The translations under genes were made by a program, and so were the position numbers. From the IMG/VR virus record IMGVR_UViG_3300037629_000004, positions 1-35,700 of that record: a DNA stretch of 35,700 nt. One strand, 5' to 3'. The notes beneath the pieces are model-generated. The model was given only the letters and a program-made list of their open reading frames with translations. It made no database searches and was not told the origin of the DNA. Below are positions 5,160-23,206 of the stretch, piece by piece. This DNA comes from a virus. Taxonomy: Duplodnaviria > Caudoviricetes. Within the stretch, counting starts at the first letter, position 1. The number at the start of each line of letters is the position of its first letter.

Positions 5160-5200
5160 CGAAGTTATGCTGAAAAGATGAAATATATCAGGGTGATATA
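5160..5200 (-). promoter_or_regulatory. Putative head-operon promoter: -7 variant TAACTTCG (5167-5160), with palindrome TATATCA-GGG-TGATATA (5184-5200) over the -33 position
   Basis: Perfect palindrome copy in the intergenic region upstream of the portal gene. Confidence 0.7.
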
Positions 5201-5217
5201 TTTATTTTGTGCATGAA

Positions 5218-7791: not shown

Positions 7792-7823
7792 CAAAGTTAC
7801 TATATTACCCTGATATACTCAAA
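7792..7823 (-). promoter_or_regulatory. Bacteroidota promoter TTTG-N20-TAACTTTG with operator palindrome 7801-7817 in the spacer; drives the packaging genes
   Basis: Consensus -33 and -7 boxes; TATATTA-CCC-TGATATA on the + strand. Confidence 0.85.
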
Positions 7824-11016: not shown

Positions 11017-11194
11017 GATATTTTGTATTTGGTAAGTGACATTTCGGAGTATCGTAATACCAGGTTCTATAAACATCTGAATAAACCATCTTCTGAGTAG
11101 CATTATCCCAATGCCTGCGAAGTCCGCACCACTTGCAACGAAACTCCCTGAATCCGGGCAGTTTTTCCCACTCATGATGATTAATAAGGTGCAT
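10997..11194 (-). CDS. Small Zn-finger-like protein
   Basis: HEW...CKWC...C pattern. Confidence 0.55.
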   Translation of the reverse strand: MHLINHHEWEKLPGFREFRCKWCGLRRHWDNATQKMVYSDVYRTWYYDTPKCHLPNTKYHEQETN

Positions 11195-12497
11195 TTCCTT
11201 CGGTTATAATTGTCAAACTTTCATTATGATATAAGCACTTTGAAAACAAGGCCCCGTTTCTGTCTTTGGCGCAATCAATTATCAACAATCCCTTTGTTTC
11301 AATGGGATTTTCATCAATCTTAATGCTTAAAATATTGTAGTAATAAGGGCGATATATGAAGCAAACTATATCTGCATCCTGTTCAATGGCTCCCGACTCC
11401 CGGAGATCTGAAAGCCTGGGGCGTTTATCTGCTCTTTCTTCGACTCCCCTGTTTAACTGACTCAGTGCTATTATCGGAATTGAATATTCCTTTGCGATAG
11501 CCTTTAGCCCCTGTGATATTTTACTAACCTCCTGTTCCCTGTTTCCGGCATCCTGTTTCATGAGCTGCAGGTAGTCAACTATTACCATCTTAACCCCGTA
11601 CCTGATTATCATTTTCTTAATCTTTGAGCGGAGTTCAAATATTGTCAGTGCCGGGGTGTCATCAATGTAAATAGGCAGATTAGCTACCTGATCACTTGAG
11701 TAAACCAGTTTATCAAAATCCAGATCGGCGTTTCTTATTTCAACATTGGAATAACCGCTTGCGCCCGATAACAACCTTGCTGATATTTCGCTCTCTGACA
11801 TTTCGAGAGAAAAGAGGCAAATAGGATAATTGAGTTTTGCCGGGTTAAGGGCAAGTGTTAGTGCCATTGCAGTTTTACCCATTGAAGGACGGCCAGCTAT
11901 GATAATTAAATTACCTGGTTGCCAGCCTCCGGTGATCCTGTCAATAGAAGTGAACCCGGAAGGAACCCCGACAAGTGACTTCTCTTTTTTGAATATCTTT
12001 TCAACTTCAGTCAGTAATTCATCTATACACCTGTCAATCTTTTTGGGATCTTTATTCTGAGTGAAGTTTGAAATATTGAGTATTTGTGATTCTGTAAACT
12101 CTATTACCTCTTCCAGCGACTCTTCAAAGGCCATGTTAATTATTTCATACCCGGTCCTGATGTATTCCCTTAACAGATATTTCTCTTTGATTATCAAAAC
12201 ATGATTGTTAATGTAGCCGGAGGAAACAACTGATTCTGTTAGTTTGGTTATATACAACGGACCTCCTACCGATTCAAGTAAGTTGTTTCTTCTGAGGTAA
12301 TCAGTAAGGCTAACAATATCACATGAAGTTTTTGAAAGCTCCAGAATAGCTGTAAATATTTTCTGGTGCGATTCTTTATAAAACATTTCCGGCTTTAACT
12401 GGATGCTGTGAATAACATCAGGATAACAAAGACAGGTCCCAAGTACTGCTATCTCTGCTTCGATCATCTGAGGGGGTATTTTACCTAAGTCTATCAT
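11181..12497 (-). CDS. dnaB: Replicative DNA helicase
   Basis: GRPSMGKT, IVDYLQL, LSQLNR and DLRESGAIEQDAD motifs. Confidence 0.97.
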   Translation of the reverse strand: MIDLGKIPPQMIEAEIAVLGTCLCYPDVIHSIQLKPEMFYKESHQKIFTAILELSKTSCDIVSLTDYLRRNNLLESVGGPLYITKLTESVVSSGYINNHVLIIKEKYLLREYIRTGYEIINMAFEESLEEVIEFTESQILNISNFTQNKDPKKIDRCIDELLTEVEKIFKKEKSLVGVPSGFTSIDRITGGWQPGNLIIIAGRPSMGKTAMALTLALNPAKLNYPICLFSLEMSESEISARLLSGASGYSNVEIRNADLDFDKLVYSSDQVANLPIYIDDTPALTIFELRSKIKKMIIRYGVKMVIVDYLQLMKQDAGNREQEVSKISQGLKAIAKEYSIPIIALSQLNRGVEERADKRPRLSDLRESGAIEQDADIVCFIYRPYYYNILSIKIDENPIETKGLLIIDCAKDRNGALFSKCLYHNESLTIITEGNAPY

Positions 12498-13126
12498 CTG
12501 CCGGGTCCTGATTTAAATTCTGGTATACTAACTGCCTGTTGTGTTGTGTTGTCTCTTTTTAATGGGAATAAACCAGCCCAATTATTACCCGTTGCTTGGT
12601 CTATAATTTGTCTTGCCGTATCGGGATTACCAGAAGAAAGTCTTAGTAGATTTCTATAACACGCCTCTACTGATTTCTGGTTTTTGTATTTTTCATTTCT
12701 CGACTTCTTGTAATCCATCCATTCCATAAAAACAGGAATAAACTTTACATCTATAAAATGAAAATCAAAATCTGCCTTCTTCTTATTATTTATATCACTA
12801 TCACTTACACTATCACTTACACTATCGGCATGATTTGCATCGCTTTTTATGCCTTCGGATGCGTTCGCATTTATTTTATTCCATCGCATTAAAGCACTCT
12901 GTCTGTTTTTTTCCCTCTTTTCTTCATACTTAACTAAGTCTCTTTTAAGGGTTTGCTTTATTGGTGCGAATAATAATTTAGTAAGCCTGTCCGGTGCTTC
13001 GGGATTTTTATCATTAACATACCGGAAGAAATGTTTAATCAATTTTCCCGCTTCAACATCTTCAAGTTCCTCAAAGATGTTAATCCAGTCGGCATAAACT
13101 AAAATTGATTTTTTATCTTCAGCCAT
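12494..13126 (-). CDS. Replication initiator (DUF6291-like N-terminus)
   Basis: KKSILVYADW...EAGKL N-terminus; internal DSVS repeats; EWMDYKK...NNWAGLF C-terminus; coupled to dnaB. Confidence 0.8.
   Translation of the reverse strand: MAEDKKSILVYADWINIFEELEDVEAGKLIKHFFRYVNDKNPEAPDRLTKLLFAPIKQTLKRDLVKYEEKREKNRQSALMRWNKINANASEGIKSDANHADSVSDSVSDSDINNKKKADFDFHFIDVKFIPVFMEWMDYKKSRNEKYKNQKSVEACYRNLLRLSSGNPDTARQIIDQATGNNWAGLFPLKRDNTTQQAVSIPEFKSGPGR
12792..12890. repeat. Iteron-like repeats inside the initiator gene (CTATCACTTACA tandem, GCAT/ATGC motifs); candidate replication origin
   Basis: 12-bp tandem next to an AT-rich tract; lambdoid origins lie within the initiator gene. Confidence 0.4.
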
Positions 13127-13138
13127 TGATTATCCTCC

Positions 13139-13255
13139 TTAAAAGATGCCCCCGGAACAAAAAGAAAATTCAGGTAGGTACGCATCACTGAACCTTTCCT
13201 GAATCCTTTTTGCCCGGAGGCAATATTTTAACGTGATATTTAAAACCGATCTCAT
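13139..13255 (-). CDS. Leader peptide 1, 38 aa (MRSVLNITLKYCLRAKRIQERFSDAYLPEFSFCSGGIF)
   Basis: Homologous to leader peptide 2; its stop codon overlaps TAAGGAGG before the initiator gene. Confidence 0.6.
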   Translation of the reverse strand: MRSVLNITLKYCLRAKRIQERFSDAYLPEFSFCSGGIF

Positions 13256-13266
13256 ATGTGATGCGT
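13147..13266 (-). promoter_or_regulatory. Structured leader RNA 1 (long hairpin plus 9-bp loop-to-5'UTR pairing)
   Basis: Stem 13213-13222/13147-13156; ACGCATCAC (13266-13258) is complementary to loop GTGATGCGT (13188-13180). Confidence 0.8.
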
Positions 13267-13275
13267 TTATTTCTG

Positions 13276-13307
13276 CTAAATTACTATATCACCCTGATAT
13301 ATCCAAA
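13276..13307 (-). promoter_or_regulatory. Promoter TTTG-N20-TAATTTAG with operator palindrome 13285-13301 in the spacer; drives the replication operon
   Basis: Same geometry as the promoters at 7792, 16951 and 20009; TATATCA-CCC-TGATATA. Confidence 0.8.
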
Positions 13308-13324
13308 TAATATTAAGACAAAAA

Positions 13325-13525
13325 TTACTCATAATTCAAAATTTTGTCGAGGAGATCAATATCATGACCGAGGCCCCCGGCTCGAACTACCAGATTAAAA
13401 TATTCTCTCGGCTGTAAGACCAGGTTGATTTTGCCCTTCTCCTCCTGTATCTTCAGAAGTTCGCTTGCCAGGACTGCCCTTTCGGATTCTGCCCGTTTCC
13501 TTGTTGGTGATTTGAATAGTTTCAT
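13325..13525 (-). CDS. Hypothetical protein
   Basis: ATGA-coupled ORF. Confidence 0.65.
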   Translation of the reverse strand: MKLFKSPTRKRAESERAVLASELLKIQEEKGKINLVLQPREYFNLVVRAGGLGHDIDLLDKILNYE

Positions 13526-13785: not shown

Positions 13786-14189
13786 ATGAAGTTTATAAGT
13801 TGCTTTTCGATTTCTATACTAGATACCCCAATATCCTCTATGATTTTATCCAAGACCCTTGAATAAACCTCTTCAAATTCATCCTGTTGCATTGAGGCAA
13901 ATGATATACTCATTGCTTCATAATACATTCCCTGATCGAGCTGGTAGGCTTTGAAATAACCCGCTTTAATTGTCATATACCTTCGGTAAGTATCAAAAGG
14001 CATATCAAGTTTAGAATTTTCACAACCTACATTTATGAGTGCCATAAATTTCTTATGGAACCCCAGGTTCCGGGGATTTGTTATCTCAACCTTATAGTCT
14101 TGCCCTAGTTTTAATTTTCTTTTTTCATCCTGATCGGAAGGATAAAGAGGGACAAGTCCGGAAATAGTATTTCGGCAATAAATTTCCAT
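13782..14189 (-). CDS. DUF1367/NinB-like protein
   Basis: PRNLGFHKKF...SISFASMQQDEFEEVY motif. Confidence 0.75.
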   Translation of the reverse strand: MEIYCRNTISGLVPLYPSDQDEKRKLKLGQDYKVEITNPRNLGFHKKFMALINVGCENSKLDMPFDTYRRYMTIKAGYFKAYQLDQGMYYEAMSISFASMQQDEFEEVYSRVLDKIIEDIGVSSIEIEKQLINFM

Positions 14190-14620
14190 TATGCCAAGGG
14201 ATCAAAAGAAGGATCATCTTCAGCATTACCGCCATAAAAACCATTTCTTATATCACTTTCAACATCTCCTGTTTTCTGCTTGATTTCTGTTTTTTCCTCT
14301 CTCTTTCCTCCGGCAAAATGAAAGCGATCACACAATATTTCAGTGATGTATTTAGTTACTCCGTCTTTGGTTTCATATTGTCTGTATTGGATCTCACCCT
14401 CGACAATAATCGAAGATCCTTTTTTGACAAACTTCTCGATTGTTTCGGCTGTTTTCCCCCATGCGACAATATTGTGCCATTGAGTTTCGGTTATCGTTTC
14501 TCCGTCCTTTGTATATCTTTTGCTTGTCGCTAAAGAGAACTTTGAAACAATTTTACCAGATTCGAGATGCTTAACCTCGGGGTCGTTACCGATGTTCCCA
14601 TATAGAATTACTTTATTCAT
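14189..14620 (-). CDS. ssb: Single-stranded DNA-binding protein
   Basis: MNKVILYGNIGNDPE, TQWHNIVAWG; acidic tail. Confidence 0.95.
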   Translation of the reverse strand: MNKVILYGNIGNDPEVKHLESGKIVSKFSLATSKRYTKDGETITETQWHNIVAWGKTAETIEKFVKKGSSIIVEGEIQYRQYETKDGVTKYITEILCDRFHFAGGKREEKTEIKQKTGDVESDIRNGFYGGNAEDDPSFDPLA

Positions 14621-15234
14621 AATGTTTCGTATTTATTATAATTTTCAAGTTTTGTTTTTACTTGTTCGATCAGAATATCTAATCTTCTCTCGAACTCTTT
14701 GAATAGTTTGGCATCGGGATAAACCCGAACCATAAACAACTTCATTCCTTCGACATAACTGACAAAGTCACAATAAGGAAGTCCGGTAACAAACAACTGA
14801 CCCTGTACTTGGTATCGGTATTCTGAAGGCAATTTACCTCCCTCAATATATTCAAAGTGTGTTCGTGCCAGGGGGCATTTAATTTCAATTAACCCGTCCG
14901 TCATTCCGTCCGGTGATATACCAATCCAGTCGTGATATTTATGGTCTTCGTCGGGAATAATAAAACCGACCTGTTTAACCTCGACATCAAAAAGACTTTC
15001 ATATTCAGTTCGGGCAATAGGTTCTGTTTCTTTGCCATGTTCCATATTAGCATTAGAATACTTTTCTTCTTCTGCCTTATGCGTGATTATTTCACAGGCA
15101 ATGTTTGTGACCAGGTCTTTATGTGTCGCCGTGCTTTCTCCTGCCACAAGGGATTTAAAACGGGTTCCTGTAACACGACCACAACGAGCCTCAAACCAGG
15201 CTTCACTATTTTGATCTATATTATAGAGTATCAT
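14617..15234 (-). CDS. YqaJ/lambda-exonuclease family nuclease
   Basis: QNSEAWFEAR, ISPDG, IEIKCP and YQVQGQL motifs. Confidence 0.92.
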   Translation of the reverse strand: MILYNIDQNSEAWFEARCGRVTGTRFKSLVAGESTATHKDLVTNIACEIITHKAEEEKYSNANMEHGKETEPIARTEYESLFDVEVKQVGFIIPDEDHKYHDWIGISPDGMTDGLIEIKCPLARTHFEYIEGGKLPSEYRYQVQGQLFVTGLPYCDFVSYVEGMKLFMVRVYPDAKLFKEFERRLDILIEQVKTKLENYNKYETL

Positions 15235-15641
15235 TCTATTGACTTGTCAAGTGATACCATAAGATCAAAGAGAACAGTAGCATATGCGGATAAATCCTCA
15301 AAAGGAACTTTCCCGGCAATTACAAGATCCTTGCTGTATGAAACAGCAAAACCGGAATACTTTGATTGCTCCCTCTTTAATTCTTTGCCATAAGAGGAAT
15401 ATTTTCCTTTCTGTACCGGCTTAATTACAAGAAATGTCTGAGGATTGCCGTTCTTGTCTTGGTAGGTTTTTTCTTCTTCGGTAAACTCTGCCTCTTCTCC
15501 GGCTTTGAATTTATTCTGATCCTTAAATTTGGAATTATAAAAAGCAATCTTGTTGTCATATTTGACTTTAAAGGAATACATCTTGCCAAACTGGGTCTCT
15601 TTCTCTTTGTGAAAAATAACCTCTTTGATTAATTCTTTCAT
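15231..15641 (-). CDS. Putative OB-fold ssDNA-binding/recombination protein
   Basis: Aromatic, beta-rich N-terminus with helical C-terminus; occupies the usual annealase position. Confidence 0.5.
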   Translation of the reverse strand: MKELIKEVIFHKEKETQFGKMYSFKVKYDNKIAFYNSKFKDQNKFKAGEEAEFTEEEKTYQDKNGNPQTFLVIKPVQKGKYSSYGKELKREQSKYSGFAVSYSKDLVIAGKVPFEDLSAYATVLFDLMVSLDKSIE

Positions 15642-16675
15642 AACTCGTTGGCTTTATCCTTGATGAAGTTTGCAACCTTTATTAACAGAGAATTAGCATC
15701 TGCAATAATCCCGGCAGCCTCTATACTTTTAACCTCCGGCCTGGGTAGGTCATTTATTACCTGCATGAAGTTTAACAGTTTTGTTTTATCGGGCGCACGG
15801 GCAGCCTTTTTCTCGGCTTCCTTTGCCTTGCGTTCTGCATCGGCTTTTTCTCTTTTATCAGCCTCTTCCCTTGCCCTGATTTCTGCTTCGGCTTTCTCTT
15901 TAGCTTTTTTCTCTGCCTCTGCCTCGGCTCTTGCTTTTGCAAGTTCGGCATCTCTTTTCTCCTGTTCCTTGCGTGCCTTTTCTCTTTCTGCTTCCTGTGC
16001 TTTCAGGAGTTTGTTTTTCTCTGCCTCTGCTTTTTTGCGTTCTGCAGCCATCTCCTTTTCTCTTTCTTCGGCCTCTTTCTGCAAGCGGATATTTTCAAGT
16101 CTCTGTGCTTCACGGGCCTCGGCATCTGCCTTTTCCCTGGCAATGCGATCTTCTTCTGCCTTTTTCTCGGCTGCAATTCTTGCCTCGCGTGCTACCCGGA
16201 ACCCGGAGAGAAGATTATCAAATACGGTTTGTTCCATGTGGCCCAATGCCAGAGGCTCGATGTCAGTATAGGGGCTAAGTTTTTCAAGCCTCTCCATACG
16301 AAGTTTTTCAACTCTTTCACGTTCAAGATTCTCAAAATGATTCTCAATCTTTGACAGGGTTTCTTCTTTCTCCTGGGATGCAAAAAGCTGGGCATTTTTC
16401 CATCCATCGACAAAGCGACCTCCATTCAAATAGAATAACTTTGCTTTCTTATGGATCTCTGCCGTCCCGGTTCTGATTTTCACGTACTGCAAACGGAGTT
16501 GTTTTGCCATCTTGCAAGTATCATCATTCAGTTCAAGTTTCAGGATCTCGTTGTACTCTTTTTCGAGTTCAACCATCTTCGCCAGCATCGGAGTAAATAT
16601 CTCCTCTATCTCTTTAGCCTTGCTTTCTTCAAGACCATAGTCGGATGCGTTAATTTTAACTAATGTAGTTTCCAT
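15638..16675 (-). CDS. Long coiled-coil protein of the recombination module
   Basis: E/K/A/R-rich helical repeats. Confidence 0.75.
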   Translation of the reverse strand: METTLVKINASDYGLEESKAKEIEEIFTPMLAKMVELEKEYNEILKLELNDDTCKMAKQLRLQYVKIRTGTAEIHKKAKLFYLNGGRFVDGWKNAQLFASQEKEETLSKIENHFENLERERVEKLRMERLEKLSPYTDIEPLALGHMEQTVFDNLLSGFRVAREARIAAEKKAEEDRIAREKADAEAREAQRLENIRLQKEAEEREKEMAAERKKAEAEKNKLLKAQEAEREKARKEQEKRDAELAKARAEAEAEKKAKEKAEAEIRAREEADKREKADAERKAKEAEKKAARAPDKTKLLNFMQVINDLPRPEVKSIEAAGIIADANSLLIKVANFIKDKANEL

Positions 16676-16686
16676 TTTTAAGGGTT

Positions 16687-16812
16687 TTAATTATTATTAA
16701 ATTTTTCTTCTAGTCGTAGTTCATCTTCTTTCGATTCCATTTCCTCTTCCTCTTCCTCGGTGTAAAGAGGTTCTGTCTCCGGGTTGTTATCCCATATAGT
16801 TCTTTTGCTCAT
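16687..16812 (-). CDS. 41-aa highly acidic protein (MSKRTIWDNNPETEPLYTEEEEEEMESKEDELRLEEKFNNN)
   Basis: Translated by hand; starts 5 nt after the leader peptide 2 stop. Confidence 0.65.
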   Translation of the reverse strand: MSKRTIWDNNPETEPLYTEEEEEEMESKEDELRLEEKFNNN

Positions 16813-16817
16813 CTGGT

Positions 16818-16931
16818 TTAAATTATACCTCCGGGACAAAAGAAAAAGCACATCAGGAAGCGTGACCGACCATTTGTGCTATCTCCCGCCCGGAGGCAGT
16901 ATTTTAATGCTATGTTTAAAACTTTATTCAT
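16818..16931 (-). CDS. Leader peptide 2, 37 aa (MNKVLNIALKYCLRAGDSTNGRSRFLMCFFFCPGGII)
   Basis: Homologous to leader peptide 1; reading frame kept across a net 3-nt length difference. Confidence 0.6.
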   Translation of the reverse strand: MNKVLNIALKYCLRAGDSTNGRSRFLMCFFFCPGGII

Positions 16932-16942
16932 ATGTCACGCTT
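16826..16942 (-). promoter_or_regulatory. Structured leader RNA 2 (long hairpin plus 9-bp loop-to-5'UTR pairing)
   Basis: Stem 16889-16898/16826-16835; AAGCGTGAC (16942-16934) is complementary to loop GTCACGCTT (16866-16858). Confidence 0.8.
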
Positions 16943-16950
16943 TTCAGTAT

Positions 16951-16982
16951 CAAATTTACTATATCACTCTGATATATGCAAG
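16951..16982 (-). promoter_or_regulatory. Promoter CTTG-N20-TAAATTTG with operator palindrome 16960-16976 in the spacer; drives the recombination operon
   Basis: Consensus -7 box; TATATCA-CTC-TGATATA. Confidence 0.85.
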
Positions 16983-20008: not shown

Positions 20009-20040
20009 CAAAGTTAATATATCAGTTTAATATATGCAAA
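20009..20040 (-). promoter_or_regulatory. Promoter TTTG-N20-TAACTTTG with operator palindrome 20018-20034; drives the tRNA/ncRNA unit
   Basis: Perfect -33 and -7 consensus; TATATCA-GTT-TAATATA. Confidence 0.85.
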
Positions 20041-23166: not shown

Positions 23167-23189
23167 TTCTTTTTTTGTTTATTTGTTAG

Positions 23190-23206
23190 TATATTACTCT
23201 GATATA
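23190..23206. promoter_or_regulatory. Operator palindrome upstream of the tail tube gene
   Basis: TATATTA-CTC-TGATATA. Confidence 0.7.

Follow-up and report, generated by a model that had tools for sequence, protein, structure and literature searches.

Introduction

In the pyrBI operon of Escherichia coli, a leader open reading frame (ORF) runs through the terminator hairpin, and the ribosome that translates it prevents this hairpin whatever the sequence of the peptide. An upstream pause hairpin is part of the arrangement, and the system senses UTP through polymerase pausing. In phage P4, immunity depends on a structured leader RNA that pairs with complementary sites upstream and downstream, with premature termination before the replication genes (PMC4825925, in part). 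In the C4 (icd-ant) system of P1 and P7, an RNA from the same operon represses the downstream genes via a small ORF, and Icd itself is an active division inhibitor (PMC8198154, in part). RNA pairing by CopA in plasmid R1 blocks the leader ORF, Tap, on which the replication initiator depends (PMC5717011, in part), and the leader peptides of I-complex plasmids follow the same plan (PMC10724649, in part). In the Gifsy-1 prophage, the leader IsrK yields a short, terminated RNA whose target in trans is the long form, on which it acts via an upstream ORF; it activates translation, and its ORF lies downstream of the terminator (PMC4825925, in part).

Here, we describe a phage leader that, by analogy, would work like P4 CI and P1 C4 control and R1 Tap, yet matches no Rfam, Pfam, NCBIfam or PHROG family. 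Its shared unit consists of a −7 promoter of the Bacteroidota type, a 6- to 11-nt segment that we call the key, an ATG, a long hairpin, the loop of which (the lock) complements the key, a U-rich tail and the next gene. The leader points to an uncatalogued RNA switch heading early operons of Bacteroidota phages.

The likeness to P4 is that the key is seqA-like, the loop is CI-like and a seqC-like second site is present in 7 of the 34 leaders that we collected. Unlike P4, the leader has no sequence or Rfam match, it has one long hairpin with one loop site, and its peptide is not conserved. The leader ORF also begins upstream of the hairpin and crosses it, unlike in P4, where kil lies downstream of CI. 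A further difference is the apparent host group, the Bacteroidota, in which initiation proceeds without Shine-Dalgarno pairing and little RNA control has been described. As in C4 and CI, the loop is complementary to an upstream site in the same transcript and covaries with it; C4 specificity likewise varies between phages. Unlike C4 of P1 and P7 (RF01695), the leader peptide lacks a fixed sequence and there is no Rfam match, and the downstream genes encode initiators, HNH proteins and methylases rather than an antirepressor. The likeness to R1 and the I-complex plasmids is that small RNA changes would set compatibility groups. Unlike CopA and RNAI, which are separate antisense RNAs, the complementary loop is part of the leader and shares its strand; opposite-strand promoters are not enriched. 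As in pyrBI, the leader ORF is open through the stem (34 of 34), and a GC-rich base is followed by a U tract (at least 5 T in 31 of 34; 4 in one of the two copies studied here, cassette B); a small upstream hairpin is a further shared feature. Unlike in pyrBI, gating would depend on sequence-specific RNA pairing across the start region. Unlike IsrK, the leader is proposed here to shut off, and its ORF runs through the hairpin.

Our literature search found no description of this leader. The accessible parts of PMC2864571, PMC5737381, PMC12360218 and PMC9723704 contain nothing on it, and six of the nine supplementary files of PMC10690425 hold no match to its motif. The motif supplement of PMC5737381 and part of the supplements of PMC10690425 lay outside this search, and novelty is unproven.

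Results and Discussion

Two leader cassettes in one phage genome

The DNA analyzed here (the window) is a whole virus record of 35,700 nt (IMG/VR IMGVR_UViG_3300037629_000004) with direct terminal repeats. Its long ORFs lie on the minus strand, where the genes include terminase, portal, capsid, DnaB, SSB and YqaJ. The phage probably infects Bacteroidota, because TAnnTTTG-type elements precede the leaders, the single genome match of the leader is a Bacteroidales assembly (L150), and relatives of the DUF6291 initiator are found in Flavobacterium phages. The window carries two copies of the leader, cassettes A and B, with the following parts:

13276..13283, minus strand: −7 promoter-like element of cassette A, one mismatch to TAnnTTTG (consensus from PMC6847099, in part)
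13258..13266, minus strand: key A, 9 nt, positions −11 to −3 of the ATG, exact reverse complement of loop A
13139..13255, minus strand: leader ORF A, 38 codons from ATG to TAA by translation, open through the hairpin
13147..13222, minus strand: long hairpin A with a GC-rich base, z = −6.05 against 200 shuffles, putatively terminator-like
13180..13188, minus strand: lock A, the loop stretch complementary to key A
13137..13146, minus strand: U-rich tail after stem A, 5 T of 8, containing the stop of ORF A
16951..16958, minus strand: −7 promoter-like element of cassette B, exact TAnnTTTG
16934..16942, minus strand: key B, 9 nt, unlike key A, exact reverse complement of loop B
16818..16931, minus strand: leader ORF B, 37 codons by translation, open through the hairpin
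16826..16898, minus strand: long hairpin B, z = −5.91 against shuffles
16858..16866, minus strand: lock B, the loop stretch complementary to key B

Cassette B sits 3.7 kb upstream of cassette A, ahead of recombination genes, and a search of the window for a third cassette found none. The first-pass annotation had described open frames with start and stop at equivalent positions in both cassettes, a net length difference of 3 nt, several synonymous changes, and a key ending 2 nt before the ATG. All of this is borne out. The frames span 117 and 114 nt (38 and 37 amino acids); each ATG lies 33 nt before the hairpin arm and both stops fall just beyond the stem. Synonymous pairs are present at Asn6, Ile7, Tyr11 and the Gly-Gly pair, and both keys end 2 nt upstream of their ATG. 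The idea that pairing would cover the initiation region agrees with the keys being exact reverse complements of the hairpin loops.

The two keys do not cross-pair. Duplex energies are −15.2 and −15.8 kcal/mol for the own key-loop pairs of cassettes A and B, versus −8.2 and −7.9 kcal/mol for the crossed pairs. Loop A scores best at its own ATG among 328 start codon sites in the window. For loop B, two sites score better than its own, and both are ATGs inside longer ORFs. The tail after stem B is weaker, with 4 T of 8. The first 12 nt of hairpin A can also fold as a small local hairpin, as the first 12 nt of the arm can in all 34 leaders. Contigs of three of four runs cover the cassette A leader without a listed difference, and there is a gap at this place in the fourth. 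Note that the two window copies alone prove little, because a dinucleotide shuffle of such a leader stretch is open about 19% of the time.

Collection of homologous leaders

To collect homologous leaders, contigs from viruses, metagenomes and genomes were scanned five times by DNA pattern. These scans were blind to frame, and their matches were filtered by fold only (energy of at most −33 kcal/mol and at least seven long-range pairs at the arm). At least 49 matches remained after the fold filter, corresponding to at least 27 distinct leaders, of which 26 had a 5′ end, the two window copies included. Identity among these first 26 leaders ranged from 61 to 98%. A covariance model built from the first leaders picked eight more distinct leaders in two further scans, one of which used the 3′ arm only; one of the eight is a near-copy of an earlier leader. 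The collected total is 34 leaders, forming 23 clusters at 85% identity. Left out of all counts are L092 and L344, whose 5′ ends are cut, and duplicates, including L307 and L398. The control set comprised 183 pattern matches that failed the fold filter.

The covariance model was also run on 151 genomes each from the family and the order of the one genome match, with 22 candidates scored per genome. The sole weak match, L277, was an ordinary short hairpin and was dropped; otherwise, nothing new was found in these genomes. Blastn of leaders A and B against GenBank phages, and of leader B against plasmids, gave no match. A sequence-blind scan for a promoter, a key and an enclosing hairpin, covering the window and six records (767 kb, both strands), returned nine matches, namely eight core leaders and the divergent cousin L421, versus zero in the shuffle.

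A frame kept open in any of three readings

All 34 leaders have an ATG 28 to 33 nt before the hairpin arm and an ORF stop at least 4 nt beyond the stem base. Eight of them came from scans later than this rule, and all eight obey it. Stops before the stem base and missing ATGs, which the first-pass annotation had named as evidence against a conserved frame, are thus absent from the core leaders. Among the controls, which share the same DNA pattern, an ATG occurs at that place in 24 of 183 and the frame is open in 8 of 183. Among the 23 cluster representatives, every used frame is open, compared with 8 of 46 off-frames. For the hairpin alone, the corresponding counts are 23 of 23 and 30 of 46 (Fisher test, P = 6e-4), although such P values overstate independence because the leaders are kin. 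Stops account for 0 of 793 hairpin codons in the used frame versus 28 of 1587 off-frame, and for 0 of 320 spacer codons in frame versus 121 of 667 off-frame.

The near-invariant 5′ arm is read in three frames, by 16, 9 and 9 leaders (YCLRA, NTASG and KILPP type, respectively). The 3′ arm is read in three frames by 14, 7 and 13 leaders, and eight of the nine frame combinations of the arms occur. Stop codons shift with the frame. A TAA at −8 before the arm is found in 14 of 16 frame-0 leaders and in none of the nine frame-1 leaders, where it would be in frame, whereas a TAA at −9 is found in six of nine frame-1 leaders and in none of the 16 frame-0 leaders. Leaders before similar genes differ in frame (L022/L136, L125/L394, L033/L404 and L042/L058), and leaders at least 85% alike can do so as well (L080 within a frame-1 cluster). 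The leader tree needs eight frame changes, and its well-supported branches force at most one per frame; this tree is too weak for counting frame switches.

At the sequence level, the frame is kept open by selection, in any of the three frames. Because any of the three can be used, the passing ribosome, and not the peptide, is likely what counts. The family would thereby offer a natural experiment, an ORF kept by selection for translation alone, with the same DNA read in three frames and stops moved out of the one used. That the ORF goes untranslated and is just a by-product of a stop-poor RNA element is highly improbable. Such an origin would agree with the hairpin alone being open in most off-frames, and note that the ATG window and the fold thresholds were set after the first lists had been seen. 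Against it stand the ATG at a fixed place in every leader but in few controls, the in-frame lack of spacer stops, the stop-avoiding changes that follow the frame, and the eight later leaders that obey the rule.

The leader ORFs do not form a peptide family

The first-pass annotation had proposed a conserved peptide family, M-x-x-VLNI-x-LKYCLRA...FxFCxGGI. This proposal fails across the 34 leaders, in which the motif is not kept and three frames are used. VLNI and FxFCxGGI each occur in 2 of 34, in both cases the window's own copies, and LKYCLRA occurs in 12 of 34. Peptide lengths range from 33 to 100 amino acids, with no shared motif beyond residue 7. Searches of Pfam and NCBIfam (E up to 1) with the 34 peptides found no family near the cut-off and three chance-level matches, and a PHROG search of the two window peptides gave no match; these libraries presumably contain Icd-like and Ash models. 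As far as sequence can tell, the leader ORFs are not a peptide family. Small-protein catalogues would file them as several unrelated ones.

We consider it very unlikely that the peptide has an activity of its own, either as a Kil- or Icd-like toxin, which the first-pass annotation had suggested, or as a nascent-chain signal in the first seven residues. Some regularities would fit such an activity: codon 7 is Ile in 23 of 34 leaders, codon 2 is Asn or Lys in 27 of 34, and frame 0 is the commonest. The frame-0 class also has a synonymous excess, which is not significant (synonymous share of 0.29 in the used frame versus 0.16 and 0.11 off-frame; bootstrap −0.19 to 0.51, spanning zero). However, the spacer is 85% A+T, on its own enough to favor Ile, Asn and Lys, and the three frames run over the most conserved DNA. 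The toxin proposal appears unsupported, with varying frames and no curated family match. The Gly-Gly changes, counted above as synonymous, fall in the 3′ stem arm and are explained by RNA structure, because pairing is kept there through wobble. Frameshifts had also been named in advance as refuting. They are the norm among the homologues, and they refute the peptide reading but leave the translation model intact.

Promoter, key-lock pair and tail across leaders

A strict TAnnTTTG ends 17 to 23 nt before the ATG in 25 of the 32 leaders with enough flank, compared with a background of 1.4% of 24-nt windows. Two leaders without a −7 element, L077 and L136, presumably lie inside longer transcripts. 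In Bacteroidota, transcription starts 4 to 5 nt after the −7 element, and initiation is tuned by structure and A−3 close to the start codon (PMC6847099, in part). Given that spacing, the 5′ untranslated part would be 12 to 18 nt, and an RNA ending at the tail would be 120 to 133 nt.

The key-loop helix comprises 6 to 11 bp and covers positions −9 to −3 of the ATG in 32 to 34 of the 34 leaders. Helices of at least 8 bp are formed by 29 of 34 own pairs versus 12% of crossed pairs, with mean pairing energies of −14.9 and −8.3 kcal/mol, respectively, and the leaders fall into 20 specificity groups. Key and loop covary, with seven of eight pairs changing on both sides in an imperfect alignment of 26 leaders. 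The upper stem varies in both arms too; thus, key variation need not mean diversifying selection. Orthogonal keys occur within one genome in the window and also in G305. With its 20 natural specificity groups, a part of 130 nt could also find use as an orthogonal regulator in Bacteroidota.

The seqC-like second site, a key-like stretch of 6 to 11 nt over the start of the next gene, is carried by L003, L035, L147, L093, L286, L047 and L125 (7 of 34, versus 7% of crossed pairs), and by neither window copy. Furthermore, at least 5 T of 8 follow the stem base in 31 of 34 leaders, with a mean of 5.7, versus a mean of 2.1 and a share of 6% upstream of 47 window ORFs. Rfam searches at E values up to 1 (the window and 14 cousin loci) or up to 5 (six core loci) gave chance matches only, with neither C4 nor CI among them and, for the 14 cousin loci, no match.

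We give hardly any credence to an antisense RNA of the CopA or Inc type, transcribed from the opposite strand and ending at a small hairpin read on the plus strand. A terminator-like match does exist on the plus strand at 13210-13223 and 16882-16896. However, opposite-strand −7 elements are not in excess, being found within 200 nt in 3 of 31 leaders (background 15%), or in 5 of 33 with a loose pattern (background 25%).

Divergent cousins keep the key-lock pair

A wider class of leaders was read in 31 loci chosen by their DUF6291 protein. A looser scan of 34 loci (110 kb) gave 23 overlapping matches in 10 of the 34, versus five in shuffles (331 kb). This wider class shares the promoter, key, complementary loop and U tail. 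L463, L464 and L476 have an open ORF behind the key; between the near-identical L463 and L464 (1412-1508), two compensating one-base indels change the peptide and keep the stop over the initiator's start. Other cousins stop early, L447 after 18 codons, inside the hairpin, and L450, L457 and L460 after 12, 6 and 10, respectively. Still others have the key in a 5′ hairpin loop with no ATG behind it (L448, L452-L456, L458 and L461, about 1385-1500; L477 and L478). Two of these no-ATG cousins belong to the cultured Flavobacterium phages 11b (L477:1258-1370) and elemoA (L478:1129-1250), which makes the layout open to testing.

Another phage has L421:1501-1615 (G305:C1:33574-33688) as a divergent second cassette, and this cassette carries a key of its own. 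From the ATG behind this key, the frame runs for 13 codons before a stop; from an ATG within the key, it stays open for 42. The tail of L421 is not rich in U. L424:1501-1622, on the minus strand (G308:C1:22410-22531), is a weak cousin (E = 0.013) in which key and loop pair over 9 bp. Its leader frame is fused to the next gene and runs on as a 166-amino acid ORF that looks HNH-like by eye. Judged from this comparison, the key-loop pair is the wider unit, because cousins keep the pair while the ORF stops early or the ATG is missing, with the read-through ORF serving as the gate in one subfamily.

Genes behind the leaders and phage lifestyle

The genes behind the two window cassettes are as follows:

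12494..13126, minus strand: DUF6291 protein of the replication-initiator type, next gene of cassette A (Pfam PF19808, E = 1.9e-21; relatives annotated "replication protein")
11181-12497, minus strand: DnaB helicase, after the DUF6291 gene
14189..16812, minus strand: operon behind cassette B, with a 41-amino acid ORF, two ORFs without a family, a YqaJ exonuclease and SSB

Pfam searches of the 34 next ORFs gave six DUF6291 or Lin1244-like proteins, five HNH proteins and four methylases, some of them below the cut-off. Relatives of the DUF6291 and Lin1244-like proteins are annotated as replication proteins. The next start codon lies about 10 to 25 nt beyond the stem base, outside the stem. The ORF stop mostly falls −25 to +14 nt from that start (extremes −47 to +14, and two run-ons of more than 140 nt), and stop and start overlap in L003, L035, L047, L065, L125 and L348. 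As a separate observation, L138:140-400 and L408:1293-1592 differ in their arm frame and converge downstream on one frame, which continues for 87 and 100 codons; this run-on stretch is conserved and also carries a GTG-started frame.

A tyrosine integrase was found in 0 of 10 phage records, a serine recombinase or ParA in 0 of 5, and an HTH_3 repressor in 0 of 5. A lysogen needing immunity is therefore not evident. Five records that carry both terminal repeats and the leader (G000, G002, G305, G306 and G308) have no match to tyrosine integrase, serine recombinase or ParA.

A probable ribosome-gated attenuator

We consider it probable that the leader attenuates transcription under a ribosome gate, and that what matters is translation as such rather than the peptide; termination and the sign of control are the parts that we infer. 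Transcription would start about 12 to 18 nt before the ATG, so that the key would make up most of the 5′ untranslated part. A ribosome loading in time would trail the polymerase, cover the 5′ arm from codon 11 or 12 onward and prevent the stem from closing. The early operon would then be read through, with the initiator and helicase behind cassette A and the recombination genes behind cassette B. Where loop-key pairing hides positions −9 to −3, no ribosome would load, the hairpin would close and transcription would end, leaving an RNA of about 120 to 133 nt. Against this model, the tails of the window copies are rather weak (5 and 4 T of 8), and the divergent cousins break the rule.

The loop could act in cis, as a timer set to close when the transcript reaches about 92 nt, or in trans, where loops of earlier terminated RNAs would provide negative feedback specific to each key. 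We lean slightly toward the timer, and both may act. A timer is feasible because, for both window copies, partial transcripts of 92 to 100 nt fold so that the key pairs with the lock; the long stem takes over later, at 124 nt. A role in trans is favored by the many keys, the orthogonal keys in one genome and the second sites, as in P4. It is disfavored because lysogeny genes were not found, which leaves nothing evident to protect.

In a bolder and rather doubtful version of the trans role, Bacteroidota phages without integrase or repressor would use the leader as a widespread one-piece RNA lock, the loop of a terminated leader silencing in trans the ribosome gate on every transcript with a matching key. 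If so, the letters of the key would define incompatibility groups among phages, and one genome could control its replication and recombination operons by separate, orthogonal switches. It would also be a repressor-free way to time replication and to count co-infecting genomes.

The first-pass annotation had translation unfolding the hairpin and coupling to the next gene. The first half is consistent with a frame that stays open through the hairpin; the second sits poorly with the U-rich tail, which points to termination. Control at the level of translation only, as in R1 Tap, is an unlikely alternative to attenuation. Ribosomes would melt the hairpin and re-initiate at the next gene, key-loop pairing would shut this off, and no termination would be involved. 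Coupling would suit the short distances and several overlaps between the ORF stop and the next start, the key-like second copy at the next start in a minority of leaders, and the fused frame of L424, and all of the frame evidence fits it equally. Yet the next start codon lies outside the stem, the stop-to-start distance is not fixed, and T content at the stem base is above the window background for start regions.

We regard it as quite unlikely that the sign is opposite, with key-lock pairing as an antiterminator that a ribosome on the key or an RNA in trans undoes. The paired intermediate does form ahead of synthesis of the 3′ arm, and it holds the 5′ arm captive in the small hairpin. Furthermore, L448, L452, L458, L477 and L478 keep key, loop and tail without an ATG at the key, so the RNA pair can function in the absence of a ribosome. 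However, a ribosome in the core family would itself block the stem, through which the frame is kept open, and the finished hairpin greatly exceeds the paired intermediate in stability (−42 versus −22 kcal/mol). For the core family, ribosome-gated attenuation is the reading that we prefer.

Repeats near the cassettes

A repeat search of the window revealed a 21-nt family, D4, with the following copies:

7797-7817, 13281-13301, 16956-16976, 20014-20034 and 23186-23206: five direct copies
near 5183-5207: inverted copy
13281..13301, minus strand: the copy overlapping the cassette A promoter, by position against promoters
16956..16976, minus strand: the copy overlapping the cassette B promoter, by position against promoters

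D4 copies overlap −7 promoter-like elements, including both cassette promoters. The repeat is a likely, or at least possible, operator of a phage regulator; an HTH_3 search found no repressor family matching such a regulator. A 29-nt inverted match (79%) links positions 45-73, near the end repeat, with 13341-13369, in the gene just upstream of cassette A, and may be due to chance. Last, a 12-nt tandem repeat of 2.6 copies lies at 12793-12826, inside the DUF6291 gene, and possibly represents the iterons of an origin.
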